Shown here in pieces: positions 1,460 through 7,904 of a stretch of DNA of 64,000 nucleotides. The notes below the pieces were generated by a model. That model saw nothing but the letters and a program-made list of their open reading frames with translations, had not been told where the DNA came from and ran no database searches. The DNA is from Minutocellus sp. GHC0000111 (Eukaryota): assembly GCA_977018835.1 (NCBI GenBank), contig OZ361260.1, positions 3,534,001 through 3,598,000 of the forward strand, read 5' to 3'. The position numbers were made by a program, and so were the translations under genes. How positions within the stretch are numbered: the first letter of the stretch is position 1; each line of letters opens with the position of its first letter.

Positions 1460-4400
1460 CTACTCATCGGCCTTGGGCGCTTCTTCGTCCGCCTCCTCGG
1501 CCTTGACAGTCTTGTCAATAGGGGCAGCGATATCCTGGGTATCGCTCCAGTAGTACTTCCACACAAAAATGGTGGCAATGGCACAGATAGCGATGGGAAT
1601 CACTGCGAGGAATAATTTAGAAAAGATGTGCAAAAAAAGGGTCAGCGCTTCGATTTCAAATTTGATTTTTCAAATTTCAGACAAACACTGCCGAGACCAC
1701 TCTCGTCGAATTGAGGAAGAAACTGGAGGAGCATTGCTGGCTGTGACAAGGAGGCCTGGGCCAAACTGTACAAGAGAACTGGAGTGATGTGCGGCGGGCA
1801 CATCCAACTGCTCTGGCGGCCCTTCCAAAGAAGCCGAGGCGAAGGTGGTGCACAACGACCGCTCCGTCACAGCGGAAGGAAGAGCCCCAGTTCGTGGCAC
1901 AGGTCCCGGCCAAGTCGACATCGTCCTGGTCCATTCCCTCTCTGACTTCGATGAAGCCATCGAGAGGTCTCACAGGAAGGGTGGACCTGCAGCGACAATG
2001 GTCTACATGTGCCTGTCAGGGCCTACGAATACTGACAGTGCTCGAGAGATTGAGATGCGGTACCAGGCGTTGGCCAAGGACAAGGGTGTGACGAACAGAA
2101 CCGAGGACGACGACTATCATCCTGGGAGTATCAGCCCCACCAATCCGTTTGCAACGGCTTGTGGATGCATCGTCAAGGACGGGCTACAGGCCGTCAAGGA
2201 TGGTACCTTCTTCCTTGATCTATCCATGCCTGAATTCTTTGCGTTGCGCATCCGAACGCACTACCCGTGGGCTCGGGACAAGAAATATTGGAGGCTGGGA
2301 ATTGGCGGGGCCAAAAAACAGAAAGCCGCAGCTCGCAAGCGGGAGCGTTGAATTGAGAAGAAGGCGGCTGCGGCGAAGAAGAAGGCGGCCTGATTCGTCC
2401 TTGCGGAAGGGGTGGAGGTAGGCATACACGTAAACAATAGAGAACAAAAACAAAACAAAAACTTACTGCGCAGTGATAGAGACAACGAGGAGATGATGAG
2501 AACGTGGTTAGATGTAAATGAGCCAAGAAGCGGTCATAAAAAGAACGATGAAGCTCGATTCCACTCACCAGCCATAGTACCACATCTCCCAGTCGCCCCA
2601 CCCAGCCATGATGGGAGCAATGACCAGAGAGATCATGCTCATGAGCTTGATGAGGATGTTGAGAGCGGGTCCGCTGGTGTCCTTGAAAGGATCTCCGACA
2701 GTATCACCAACTACGCAGGCCTTGTGAGTGTCGGTGCCCTTGCCACCGCAAGCTCCCTCGATCTCGATGTACTTCTTGGAATTATCCCAGGCTCCTCCGG
2801 CGTTGGCCATCATGATGGCAAGCATCATACCAGAGGCGATGGCGCCACCGAGCATGCCGGTGAGAGCCTTTGGCCCGATGAGAATGCCGATTACGAATGG
2901 AGCCATCACGGCATAGACGCCGGGAAGGATCATTTCTTCGACAGACGACTGGGTGGAGATAGCAACGCACTTGTCCGAGTCAGCATCGGCGGTTCCCTCG
3001 CGAAGTCCCTCGATGGTGGCGAACTGGCGACGGACCTCGATGATGATGGCACCAGCCGCCTTCTGAACCGAAAGCATTGTGAGGGCCGCAAAGAGGAAGG
3101 GAAGCATGGCTCCAAAGAGTACAGACGCAAGGACAACGGGGTCGGTGATATCAACTACATCGACCTCGGCCTTTTGCTTGAAGGCGGTTAGGAGACTAAG
3201 ACTGGTAAGAACAGCAGAGCCGATGGCAAATCCTTTGCCGGTGGCAGCGGTGGTGTTTCCAAGAGCATCAAGGGCATCGGTAGTCTCACGAACACGCTCT
3301 TCGAGCTCGGCCATCTCCGCAATTCCACCGGCATTGTCTGCAATAGGACCGTAGGCATCGGTAGCAAGGGTTACTCCAAGAGTTGAGAGCATGCCAACGG
3401 CTGAAATAGCGATACCATATCCACCTGCTAGGGCGTTGCAGCCAAAGATGGTAGCCACAAGAATGACGACGGGGGCGACACAAGAAATCATGCCAATACC
3501 AATACCCTGAATAATGACAGTGGCCGGACCACTGCATATCGATGGGTTGAGGAAAGGAAAGAGATGAGCAATACAAACCCAGGAAACAATACTAGTAGAA
3601 TAGTCACAAAAATCTCCCCCTCATGTGCACATGCGGACGACTTACGTAACACCGGCTTCCGTAATCGATCTCGTGGGCCAGTAACTGTATGAGGTAAAGT
3701 ACTCCGTCGCTTGGCCAATGAGAATACCAGCAAAGAGACCGATAATGACACAAGAAAAAATCTTCCAGCCAAGCTTCTCGGTATCAGTGACAGGCATGGG
3801 CATACCAGTTTCATCGGTGCCAAAGAGGATGGTAGATCCTTCAGAAAACCTCTGAGAGATAATGACGGCTACGAATGCAAGGACGAGAATGCCAGAGACG
3901 ATGGTTCCCTTATGCAAGGCAAAGAGAAGCTGGTGCTGGGAGGCTCCGTCCTTGGTACCAACGGCGAAATAACCAGCGACGGCAGCGAAAATTCCGGCTC
4001 CTGCAACCCAGAAGGGAAGCATAACAAGAGTGGGATCTCCGTTAGCGAGAGCAGCGGCGGCAATGATGGAGCCAACAAAGGACTCAAAGAGATCGGCACC
4101 CATGCCGGCGACGTCACCAACCTAGGGAGGAAGTGAGAAAAGAGAAACAATAGGTACAAACCATTGAGTTACATAGAAAGAATACGATGCGGGCGGTGAA
4201 AGAAACTGTGGCAGTGCCGGCAATCCGAAATACATTTTTTACTCACGTTGTCGCCAACATTATCGGCAATAACGGCCGGGTTACGCGGATCGTCCTCAGG
4301 AATATCCATTTCCACCTTGCCGACAAGATCGGCGCCGACATCGGCAGCCTTGGTGTAAATGCCTCCAGCAACACGAGCGAAGAGGGCAATGGAACTAGCA

Positions 4401-5396
4401 CCAAAGCCGAAACCGGCGAGGGAATCCATGGCATAGACCAGGGCGAGTCTCTCGTCCTCGCTACGGTTGATGGTCATGAGGTAGAAGAAGAGGGAAAGGC
4501 CGAAGAGACCAAGGCCAACGACGGTGAAGCCCATGACGGCACCGCCGGTGAAGGCAACGCGCAGAGCCGTGGCAAGACCCTCCTTGTCGGCGGCCTGGGT
4601 GGTACGAACGTTGGCATCGGTAGCAACGGCCATGCCCCCCCAACCCGCAAGGGCAGAGAGACCGGCACCGGCAAGGAAGCACCCGCCCATGCGGATACCA
4701 TCGAGACGATCGTTGGCAGCCGTGGGGGGATCGGCCGAATAGAGTGCCACAAGGAAGGCAAAGAAGACGGCGACGAAAAACGACAAGTAGAAGTACTCAG
4801 TCTTGAGGAAGGAACGAGCGCCGGAAGCGATGAGGTCGGACAGCTTGTTCATCTCATCACTTCCACGGGGGGCTTCCTTGAGCTGTAGAATTGTGAGAAT
4901 TGATAAGAAGGAAGAAAGCAAAGACGAACAAGCGCATATAAATGAGAGAAAAATCAACGCAATGGTTTATTTTGATCTCTCACGCAATGGTATCTTTTGA
5001 GCTCAAATTATGTTGTGCATATTATGTTTGTGCGAAATGCAAAACCAGGCTCTGTGTTGACCACCGACCAGTTCTCGCGCGCGCTCCAAGGAATAGGCAG
5101 AACGATCAAACCAATCGAGCAATCAACTAAACACTCCGCCCCCGAGCAAAGAAAGGCAATAAATTGCCTGCCTGCCTGCAATTGCATGCACTCCGAACTT
5201 TTTTTTTTGTGGCCGTATCTTTATTTCCAGCACAAAGAAGTCGAGTGTTTTCTTTCATTAAAAAAGCGGGAACGCAATGATGCCTTACCTTGCGCAGGAG
5301 CCAAAAGACCATGAGGCCAGCGAGGCCGCCAGCGACCAAGCTGAGCGAGACGAGCTCGATGGGATGAGCGGTGGGTGGGTTCGGCCAGGTTCCCAT
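1460..5396 (-). CDS. Membrane H+-translocating inorganic pyrophosphatase (V-PPase), 5 exons: 5396-5289, 4882-4247, 4121-3646, 3531-2570, 1602-1460
   Basis: Diagnostic motifs [53 protein letters not shown] and [14 protein letters not shown]. The first three introns are GT-AG and keep the frame. The terminal exon [19 protein letters not shown]...ADE* is joined via the nested intron. Confidence 0.95.
1603..2569 (-). other. Nested spliceosomal twin intron ([D1,2] stwintron): inner intron 2568-2466, outer intron G(2569)+2465-1603
   Basis: The minus strand reads GGC T|G[GTGAGT...CTAAC...CGCAG]TAAGT...CTGAC...CGCAG|TG ATT CCC. Sequential splicing gives in-frame YYGLIP. Confidence 0.75.
1845..2351 (+). 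other. Unknown ORF lying antisense inside the PPase outer intron; probably an inserted or degenerate element
   Basis: 168-aa ORF with no recognised domain, located in an unusually long (about 860 nt) intron. Confidence 0.3.
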
Positions 5397-5861
5397 TTTT
5401 CAATGATGGGGAGGGGGCTTGAAGTGCTGGAGTGCGGGGAGGATGCGAAACACAGCAGGAAGATGTGTTCGACTGTAGATACACAGCGGGATACAAAACC
5501 AAACAAGGTGAGGACAGCAGGCAGAGATACGCTACTTGCTTATCAACAACGGTTCGATTGGGATGTGCCAATGGATCTATTTTATGTGATGGGTGTGATG
5601 GACTTGAAGGCGAGCCAGCTGGTCGTCGGCCAATGCGTGTCAATTTGAGGTTACGATCCGCCACTTTTGGGAAATTAATGAAATTTTTCGAGGCAAGGCC
5701 TTGACTCTTGGTATGTTCTTGAGGTCCAAAGAAAACCATCGAGAACCGTCCCGTCACATGCAAAGTTTCTTTGTACTTCTCGATTGAAGGACAGACTGTG
5801 GCTCATTCATTGTTTTCAGCCAAACGAACAAGAGAGACAAAATTGCTCCACGGTAGGTACT

Positions 5862-7904
5862 ATGGCGGAAGCGTCGGGTCCTTCAGCCGGCAGCGGCGGC
5901 GGACCAATCAAACGCGGCGGCGGCAGTGGCAGCCGGCGCAGCGCAAAGCGCGGCGGGCGGAACCGTCGGGGCGGAGGAGGGCGCGGTGCCTCCTCCTCCT
6001 CAGCAGCCGCTGCTGCCTCCTCGTCCGGCGGCACCGGCAACACCAAAAGGACCAGCAAGAGCAAGCAGCAGCAAAAGACCAAGAAGCAGCAGCAGCCCAC
6101 CGGCCCTCAGCTGCCCACCCTCAAGGTGGCCGTGCGCAACATCACCGATGCCGGGCGGCACGGCACGGCGACCGACGTGGTGGCGATGGTGACCCGTCTG
6201 ATCGAGGACGTCAACAACAGCACCTGCAGCTCGAACACCGGCACTGGTACTGGTACCGGTGCGTCGTCGTCGTCACCTTCCGAGCCCAGCTCCTCGGCGG
6301 CAGCCCTGGCCGCCGGGATGATCCCCCCGGTCAAGCTCTGGCTCGACCCCATGTCGGCCCGGGCCGTTTGTATGCCCGATCGGGCGCGGGATCTCCAAAA
6401 GAGGCTCCAGGAGGAGCACGAGGAGGCCGAGAAGCAAGAGGCTGATGAGGCAGAGCAAGAGGCAGAGGAGACCGAACAGCAGCAAGAAGGAGAGGGAGAG
6501 GATGCCGACGCAGCTGCCCCCGGTTCAGGGGAAGGCGAAGAGGACGCCGACGTCAAAACGAAGGCATTGGAAGGAGATGCCAAGGATACGAATGAAGGTG
6601 ACGGACAAGCCGAGGAGGAAGTCAATGCTGAAGGTCACAAGTCCAAGGCGAAGAAGCAGCAACCTGTTTTGTCATCGACGGTCGGATGCATCCCCATCGA
6701 GAACGATGCCAACGAGGGCGGCGATAGAAGCAGCAACAGTGGCAGCAGGGGTACGACAACCGATATGGAGAAGGGACCATCCGACAAGGATGCCATCTCC
6801 GTTCGGATCGTTTCCGTCACCCCTCCCAAGAAGACCCGGCGGAGGGGGGAAGTCGGGGGGACGGCATATCTCGTTCTGACCCCTCCGATGCCCAGCTGGA
6901 TCAGAGAAAAGATGGAGGGCAAAGGCGGCGGCGGTGGCAAATCCAAGGATGCCGATACTGACGCAGCAGCGGCAGCAGCGGCAACAGCAGCAGCAGCTGG
7001 AGCGGATGAAGCAGAGGAAGATGAAATGAAAGAAGGATCTTCTCCGTTACCCCCGGCAGGCCCAGCCAGCACCACGAATAGTGCCACCATTACGCCTGCT
7101 GATCGTTCCAGGGCACTGGCTCAGTCCCGCCTTCACCTTCGGTTGGCTTTGGAGGTCCTTTCAGCTGTGGCGGAGGCGGATGCCAAGTCCTCGCAAACCT
7201 ACGGGCTCTCCGTCGTGGTAGCCGCCCCGGCCCAAAAGGCTTGGAAAGATCGCGATCCTGTCCGCGTGGCGGTCCTACCCGACCTCGGCGTGGAACGATG
7301 GAAGCGGCCCATACCAAGTGTCGATCGTAGGTATGACTCCACATTGGAACGGAGCGCGGACTACAAGGACTTCTTGGAGAGGGAGCGTGTTAAAGAGGAG
7401 GAACGATCGGCCCGGAGCAAGCCAACCCCTGGTGGGATTGGCGGCGATAGCGGCGGGGGAGGAGCCGCAACTCCGGCCGCAACTGCTCTTGCCGATCTGT
7501 CTGGCGCCTTTGGTGTTGATGCCGAATCTGGACACGCCCTATCGGCTTTGGTCGTCGAGCTGCGCAAGAAGCGCGAGGCCGAGAAGGAGAGGGAACGGGA
7601 AAAGAAGGCAAGGAAGAAAAAGGCCAAGGCCGAAGCCAAGAAGAAAAAGGCCAAGGCTGAAGCCAAGGTTCTGGCATTAGCAGGCGGTGGCAAGGGTAGC
7701 AAGGTTGGGAAGAAAGGCTGCGGGAGGAGCGGTACGAGTAGTAGCAAGAAAAAGAAGAAGAAGAGCAAATCCAGCGGAGGTCCAAGCGTCGCTCCAGGCG
7801 CGGTCTTATTGAAGCGCGGCGCTGGACCGAGTGGTGGCAATGCCGCCAGTACTAAGTCAGGTGGAGGCAAAGATGGCAAACAGAAAAGGAAGAAGAAGGC
7901 GTAG
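5862..7904 (+). CDS. UPF3: UPF3/Smg4-like nonsense-mediated decay factor with low-complexity insertions
   Basis: LKVAVRNI matches the UPF3 KVVxRxLP strand. VAAPAQK...DRRYDSTLERSADYKDFLE matches the APxQK...GTIExDxxYxxFLE motif. Lys/Arg-rich C-terminus. Confidence 0.65.
   Translation: MAEASGPSAGSGGGPIKRGGGSGSRRSAKRGGRNRRGGGGRGASSSSAAAAASSSGGTGNTKRTSKSKQQQKTKKQQQPTGPQLPTLKVAVRNITDAGRHGTATDVVAMVTRLIEDVNNSTCSSNTGTGTGTGASSSSPSEPSSSAAALAAGMIPPVKLWLDPMSARAVCMPDRARDLQKRLQEEHEEAEKQEADEAEQEAEETEQQQEGEGEDADAAAPGSGEGEEDADVKTKALEGDAKDTNEGDGQAEEEVNAEGHKSKAKKQQPVLSSTVGCIPIENDANEGGDRSSNSGSRGTTTDMEKGPSDKDAISVRIVSVTPPKKTRRRGEVGGTAYLVLTPPMPSWIREKMEGKGGGGGKSKDADTDAAAAAAATAAAAGADEAEEDEMKEGSSPLPPAGPASTTNSATITPADRSRALAQSRLHLRLALEVLSAVAEADAKSSQTYGLSVVVAAPAQKAWKDRDPVRVAVLPDLGVERWKRPIPSVDRRYDSTLERSADYKDFLERERVKEEERSARSKPTPGGIGGDSGGGGAATPAATALADLSGAFGVDAESGHALSALVVELRKKREAEKEREREKKARKKKAKAEAKKKKAKAEAKVLALAGGGKGSKVGKKGCGRSGTSSSKKKKKKSKSSGGPSVAPGAVLLKRGAGPSGGNAASTKSGGGKDGKQKRKKKA

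Follow-up and report, generated by a model that had tools for sequence, protein, structure and literature searches.

Gene structure at the locus

The window, i.e. the whole stretch of 64,000 nucleotides that was analysed, carries on its minus strand between positions 5396 and 1460 a five-exon gene for a membrane pyrophosphatase (Table 1; Pfam H_PPase, E value 1.4e-133). With 447 bits against PF03030, for which the cut-off is 29.7, the encoded protein belongs to this family, while specificity for H+ rather than Na+ is a prediction. Introns 1 to 3 are of the ordinary GT-AG type, with lengths of 406, 125 and 114 nt, and their three joints were all present in three of three RNA runs (X3, X6 and X12). 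The last intervening sequence is longer, comprising 967 nt, and its complete removal yields a protein of 774 amino acids that ends in YYGLIP..KADE, with the stop codon TAG at 1462-1460. Divergently oriented to the pyrophosphatase gene, a neighbouring frame of 740 codons (5682-7904, plus strand) is rich in low-complexity sequence and had no Pfam match.

Table 1. Coordinates of the pyrophosphatase exons and of the elements of the last intervening sequence, given in window positions.
Feature	Position	Strand	Description and basis
Exon 1	5396-5289	minus	sequence
Exon 2	4882-4247	minus	sequence
Exon 3	4121-3646	minus	sequence
Exon 4 of the H+-pyrophosphatase (specificity predicted)	3531-2570	minus	Pfam H_PPase and RNA contigs
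Whole candidate stwintron	2569-1603	minus	967 nt, with GG and AG as its outermost letters; interrupts the Leu codon of YYG-L-IP in phase 1; RNA joint
G1 of the external donor	2569	minus	sequence; present in the intermediate, absent from the mature joint; indel-free in X1, X14 and X17
Internal U2-type intron GTGAGT...CGCAG	2568-2466	minus	103 nt; RNA joint of 2465 to 2569 in X12
Predicted branch site CTAAC, internal intron	2511-2507	minus	sequence
TAAGT, +2 to +6 of the external donor; with G2569 forms GTAAGT	2465-2461	minus	sequence; X12 junction GGCTG/TAAGT
External intron body	2465-1603	minus	864 nt counting G2569; length varies among related strains
Predicted branch site (G)CTGAC, external intron	1645-1641	minus	sole branch-like motif in the final 80 nt
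External acceptor CAG, followed by T	1605-1603	minus	sequence; used by the mature joint
Exon 5, terminal, coding	1602-1460	minus	hydrophobic stretch (predicted membrane helix), acidic tail and TAG; sequence; C-terminus matched in homologues
ORF-like passenger, 187 codons, inside the external intron, opposite strand	1788-2351	plus	ORF listing

Layout of the last intervening sequence

Exon 4 ends with TAC TAT GGC T (2570) and is followed by G2569, a self-contained unit of 103 nt and TAAGT. By the criteria for canonical U2 introns in PMC12403724 (GURWGY, RYURAY and YAG), the 103-nt unit qualifies as an intron with GTGAGT, TCTAAC (five of six positions) and CAG. It lies exactly between G1 and U2 of a second donor, which is the defining position of the internal intron in a [D1,2] stwintron, and its removal leaves a canonical external intron with GTAAGT, GCTGAC and CAG. 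The original prediction had described this architecture from the letters of the window, and all of its coordinates agreed with the sequence on re-examination. Translation likewise bore out that unspliced RNA runs into a stop at TGA 2567-2565 and that one-step splicing from GT2568 to AG1603 loses the frame, with a stop at 1515; splicing of the inner unit only leads to a stop at 2261. Fusion of G with TAAGT to a GTAAGT donor, from which the prediction had derived an in-frame YYG-LIP, gives a product that is identical to P0129, a stored Logan protein found on 12 contigs. The predicted donor layout stood, but an alternative had been overlooked: when every single donor with GT or GC from 2660 to 2556 is considered, three GC donors alone are in frame, the nearest of them at 2572 with YYVIP at the junction and again 774 amino acids, yet the joint in RNA lies at 2570 and not at 2573. 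A small hidden exon does not fit within the inner intron because AG is absent between the inner branch site and 2467.

The strict pattern (GGTRAG, branch site, YAG-TRAG) occurs once in the 64 kb, at the 2569 site. It appeared in 2 of 60 Markov-shuffled windows (mean 0.03) and is rare by chance. A relaxed scan of the window added only an upstream exonic GGT paired to the same acceptor. Both acceptors read CGCAG followed by T, the outer one at 1607-1603 and the inner one within the palindrome CTGCGCAG (2473-2466); this likeness may be a matter of chance or a trace of duplication.

Splice junctions in RNA contigs

From a list of 22 runs, 4 of the 10 on record as RNA and 4 of the 12 others were compared, in all cases as assembled contigs; X19 and X20, of small share, and the remaining runs did not enter the evidence. 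Such contigs carry no strand and lose rare variants, and their depth was not used for ranking RNA species; DNA and RNA never came from matched material. The predicted mature junction GGCT/TGATTCCC was found in all four RNA runs, which belong to two studies (X3 and X12 in P2, X6 and X7 in P3), as a joint of 1602 to 2570 (GGCT/TGATT) that skips 967 nt. The joint has no register ambiguity, its ends on the sense strand are GG..AG, and the mature RNA lacks the entire intervening sequence including G1, as is required of a [D1,2] stwintron. In two X3 contigs with this joint, the exon pieces had no mismatching letters to the window. The predicted intermediate GGCTG/TAAGT was recovered as well, in one of the four RNA runs: a single X12 contig joins 2465 to 2569, skips 103 nt with GT..AG ends, has 31 letters on its short side and matches the window exactly, with no other letters across 2465-2107. 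This joint has one letter of register slack, and the alternative register would have GG..CA ends. The intermediate joint was not seen in the contigs of X3, X6 and X7. Both junctions were observed in RNA contigs; conversion of the intermediate to the mature mRNA, and the origin of both from the allele in the window, would be the simplest connection between them.

Three trivial explanations would do without nested splicing: the assembly may have miscounted the Gs and so conceal a plain intron, splicing may start from the GC donor at 2572, or the protein may end at TGA 2565. The GC donor does give an in-frame product of 774 amino acids, with YYVIP. Against this group of explanations, the positions 2568-2569, at which the original prediction had advised a check of the G count, are without indel in X1, X14 and X17, so that the GG is no assembly slip, and the RNA joint lies at 2570 in an unambiguous register. 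Furthermore, the junction motif G-x-x-P, and with it the Gly, is kept in 116 of 120 homologues, 59 of which have the GLIP that the prediction had proposed to look for, while the other four end or diverge just before it; P0129 is the product expected from two steps. Neither a single-G form nor an mRNA end at TGA 2565 nor a small exon, the outcomes that would have spoken against the prediction, came to light, and we regard the trivial explanations as having a negligible probability.

The spliceosome might instead cut one base 5' of the GT and remove all 967 nt in one step as a GG-AG intron, with inner-only splicing as a side product. The mature junction does read GG..AG from end to end, a GG-AG site has been reported in human CPSF3 (PMC4176328), and the intermediate was present in just one of the four RNA runs. 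However, the GG donor (GCT/GGTGAG) matches the U1 consensus at one of nine positions and is unfit for the U2-like GG-AG class. By the same measure, the inner donor (CTG/GTGAGT) reaches 7/9, the rebuilt donor (GCT/GTAAGT) 6/9 and introns 1 to 3 reach 6/9 to 7/9. The intermediate exists and possesses a consensus GTAAGT donor, which also argues against a one-step reaction. Joints of 1602 to 2569 (one-step splicing from the canonical GT), 1602 to 2467 (CA/GTAAGT removed first) and 1602 to 2573 (GC donor) were unlisted in all four RNA runs, where contigs cannot prove absence. Taken together, we consider one-step GG-AG splicing very unlikely.

DNA-like runs, related strains and alleles

Of the four runs that resemble DNA, X1, whose kind is unrecorded, covers 5452-1200 at a depth of 176 and, with splice joints missing at every intron, behaves as DNA. 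It contains the stwintron form alone, with GG intact and indels elsewhere, and may be the source of the window itself. The stwintron region is kept in related strains from three other studies: an X14 contig covers 2694-2329 with 19 gap letters, all of them at 2408, 2439 and 2523; two X17 contigs, 2700-2524 (no gaps) and 2542-2409, bear the intron; and an X18 contig (2586-2339) retains the inner-intron region. X17, by our guess DNA of a related strain, also contains the exact mature joint, at a depth of 13.6 and with 30 letters on its shorter side, next to the intron-bearing contigs, and a joint at intron 3 was not seen in this run. Therefore, X17 may include an allele or copy from which the entire 967 nt are missing, unless some cDNA is present in the library. 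In X18, an intron-free copy that is more distant reads YFGLIP.

The polymorphism among these runs gives rise to a further explanation, in which the mRNA stems from an allele or copy without the 967 nt, what looks like the intermediate comes unspliced from an allele whose only intron here is a plain GTAAGT one, and the allele in the window is poorly spliced or dead. This would agree with the precisely joined form in X17 that lacks the intron-3 joint, with the intron-free copy in X18, with RNA runs that have no matched DNA, and with RNA populations that are themselves polymorphic: a second haplotype of the outer intron and a deletion joint of 2155 nt are present in X6 and X12. On the other hand, X1 has solely the stwintron form at high depth (although it is perhaps the window's source, and contigs drop rare variants), the inner-only joint and hence an inner-less allele was found in none of the four DNA-like runs, and the stwintron region is kept in all three runs from other studies. 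The X12 intermediate contig is identical to the window, and two separate alleles with precise losses would be needed, of which the loss of the inner intron through cDNA would itself presuppose the intermediate (PMC5639578). We consider this allelic explanation improbable, if less so than one-step GG-AG splicing.

The 2155-nt joint connects 4291 in exon 2 to 2135 in the outer intron, skips 4290-2136 and has AT..GG ends on the sense strand. It occurs in X6 and X12, from two studies, accompanied by a haplotype that differs at 1589, 1632, 1769 and 1864, and X7 has a 612-nt contig with this span; X1 and X3 did not show the joint. Its appearance is that of a deletion allele, which would yield a product of 234 amino acids.

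The external intron differs by indels of 86-550 nt among X14, X17 and X18. One X18 contig lacks 1859-2408, i.e. 550 nt of the region of the passenger ORF. This ORF had no Pfam match and three near relatives among 89 candidates; the relatives P0136 and P0137 read through the TGA that ends it in the window into a tail of 11 residues. The passenger is probably a relic. A higher conservation of the inner intron than of intron 3 in X14 (at most 2/103 against 10/114 positions among the substitutions listed; Fisher p 0.036) was noticed post hoc and is not counted as evidence.

Homologues and origin of the intron position

The best named homologue over exon 4 is from Minutocellus polymorphus, with 99% identity, and over the whole protein the identity is 95.9-96.1% to Minutocellus proteins and 95.0% to Arcocellulus cornucervis. 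When 29 chosen proteins were placed in a quick maximum-likelihood tree, the model grouped with Minutocellus and Arcocellulus in one clade with an SH-aLRT of 98, in agreement with the assignment to diatoms that had been made from the sequence alone. We take this group to be the family Cymatosiraceae.

Two further proteins, P0023 (one member, on one contig of 12.8 kb) and P0120 (44-kb contig), read through the junction motif to the C-terminus, and we infer that they represent intron-free genomic copies because other members from their sources are single-exon gene calls. The stwintron position seems to be lineage-restricted, and some close relatives appear to be intron-free here. Neither the four DNA-like runs nor a metagenome scan revealed a relative in which this site has a plain GTAAGT intron. 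The scan for relatives with GT at this codon returned three loci (L001-L003), all reading through without intron, which are uninformative on intron presence because they look like transcripts. A 23-nt junction pattern had no matches in genome_contigs and none in viral_contigs, as expected for a eukaryote. On these data, insertion of the inner intron into a host intron that was already there, the course described for lipS in fungi (PMC5639578), is indistinguishable from a gain of the whole unit. The position would be a lineage-restricted gain, convergent with fungi.

Several homologous models deviate close to the motif. The Fragilaria crotonensis model P0053 has the C-terminus ..WECGTLVSFPLGS, and a shifted frame of its possible coding DNA reads WYFGLIP. 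It seems to be frameshifted just before the motif, either because an intron was misplaced, through an error in the sequence or because of a further nested intron. P0017, P0052 and P0075 stop with ..GK, at the motif Gly or shortly before it, which suggests, as far as these sequences can tell, that other diatoms and their relatives have introns close to this position but not at it.

Predicted order of the splicing reactions

We conclude that the 967-nt last intervening sequence is very probably a strict [D1,2] stwintron that is removed by two ordinary splicing reactions in a fixed order. In the first reaction, for which the junction was observed, the 103-nt GT-AG intron would be excised and G2569 joined to TAAGT. 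In the second, the rebuilt GTAAGT donor would be spliced to CAG1603 with removal of 864 nt, passing through the observed intermediate. The product, whose junction was likewise observed, encodes the in-frame pump of 774 amino acids including its last hydrophobic helix. If the GTAAGT...CAG unit were removed first (donor CA/GTAAGT at 2466), CA/TG would remain and the inner acceptor would be destroyed, because exon 5 begins with T. The order of the reactions is therefore predicted to be obligatory. The first reaction may prevail over the frameshifting one-step route through pairing of the nearby inner splice sites, as in intron definition.

Two structural features were tried and rejected. The 3' end of the inner intron is complementary to the outer acceptor over 9 nt and might have acted as an order-enforcing mask, but of 122 windows centred on CGCAG, 18 pair at least equally well and 4 reach 9 nt. 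For a terminal stem resembling NTIRE-10, the best end-to-end duplex between the first and last 20 nt was interrupted and had -8.3 kcal/mol, a value inside the span of -1.7 to -9.4 kcal/mol that the inner intron and the ordinary introns of the gene cover.

Comparison with known stepwise introns

Strict [D1,2] stwintrons have been described in Pezizomycotina, for example in lipS and dhaoS of Aspergillus nidulans and as unique stwintrons in Hypoxylaceae, where an inner U2 intron likewise separates G1 from U2 of the outer donor (PMC5639578, PMC5587772, PMC9024468 and PMC12403724). The fungal cases were tested by the same two junctions (PMC12403724, section 7); intermediate and mature junction are detectable in public RNA data, and the downstream exon begins with a base other than G, as in the diatom. 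The whole unit of fungal lipS can be lost precisely (PMC5639578), which would fit the joined form in X17. In contrast to these ascomycete cases, the host here is a diatom and thus a stramenopile, and the external intron of 864 nt, with its ORF-like passenger and large indel polymorphisms, differs from the Trichoderma reesei example of 66 + 88 nt (PMC5587772). With the sister [D1,2] stwintrons of Xylariales, which have NTIRE-10 terminal stems (PMC12403724), the diatom case shares the splice architecture and the lineage-restricted position, whereas the fully complementary near-terminal inverted repeat of 10 nt was not present and no sequence-similar stwintron copies were found within the 64-kb window. 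Of the features by which PMC12403724 defines a [D1,2] stwintron, the diatom case displays all that could be assessed.

The alternative [D1,2]/[A2,3] stwintrons also have a one-G overlap between inner acceptor and outer donor (CAG/GTAAGT), but require G as the first base of the downstream exon (PMC5587772). Exon 5 of the diatom gene starts with T, so that the case is strictly [D1,2] and has no [A2,3] alternative. At the ratchet point of recursive splicing, an acceptor AG is directly followed by a complete GT donor (AG/GT). Recursive splicing is stepwise as well and regenerates a donor at the first splice junction, whereas in the diatom the acceptor is followed by TAAGT instead of GT, and the G of the donor comes from upstream of the first intron. 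The two processes are set apart from each other in PMC5587772.

A literature search that included few subscription papers and no supplements found stwintrons in ascomycete fungi only and no nuclear stwintron outside fungi, including diatoms and other stramenopiles, in line with the original prediction, which had known of no report from stramenopiles.

Implications

The [D1,2] stwintron is a known kind of intron, and its very probable occurrence in a diatom would be a large extension of its range beyond the ascomycete fungi found in the literature search. Being supported by RNA in a lineage far from fungi, the case suggests that this layout follows from general spliceosome behaviour, and also that splice sites lying close together are paired across short introns in diatoms. 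More tentatively, and with considerable doubt, stwintrons beyond fungi might have had an independent origin in this diatom lineage, at a site where other diatoms have no intron, and the 967-nt unit might still be segregating among near-identical strains (present in X1, X14 and X18, both forms in X17), caught in the process of gain or precise loss. If this were true, introns that are removed in two steps would form a hidden class, recognisable in algal transcriptomes by apparent GG-AG junctions. Gene finders that assume GT-AG introns would truncate or frameshift genes with a nested intron of this kind, and a GG-AG junction combined with an internal YAG-TRAGT can serve as a key to search algal and protist transcriptomes. 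The possible presence/absence polymorphism of the unit may provide a handle on the gain and loss of such introns.
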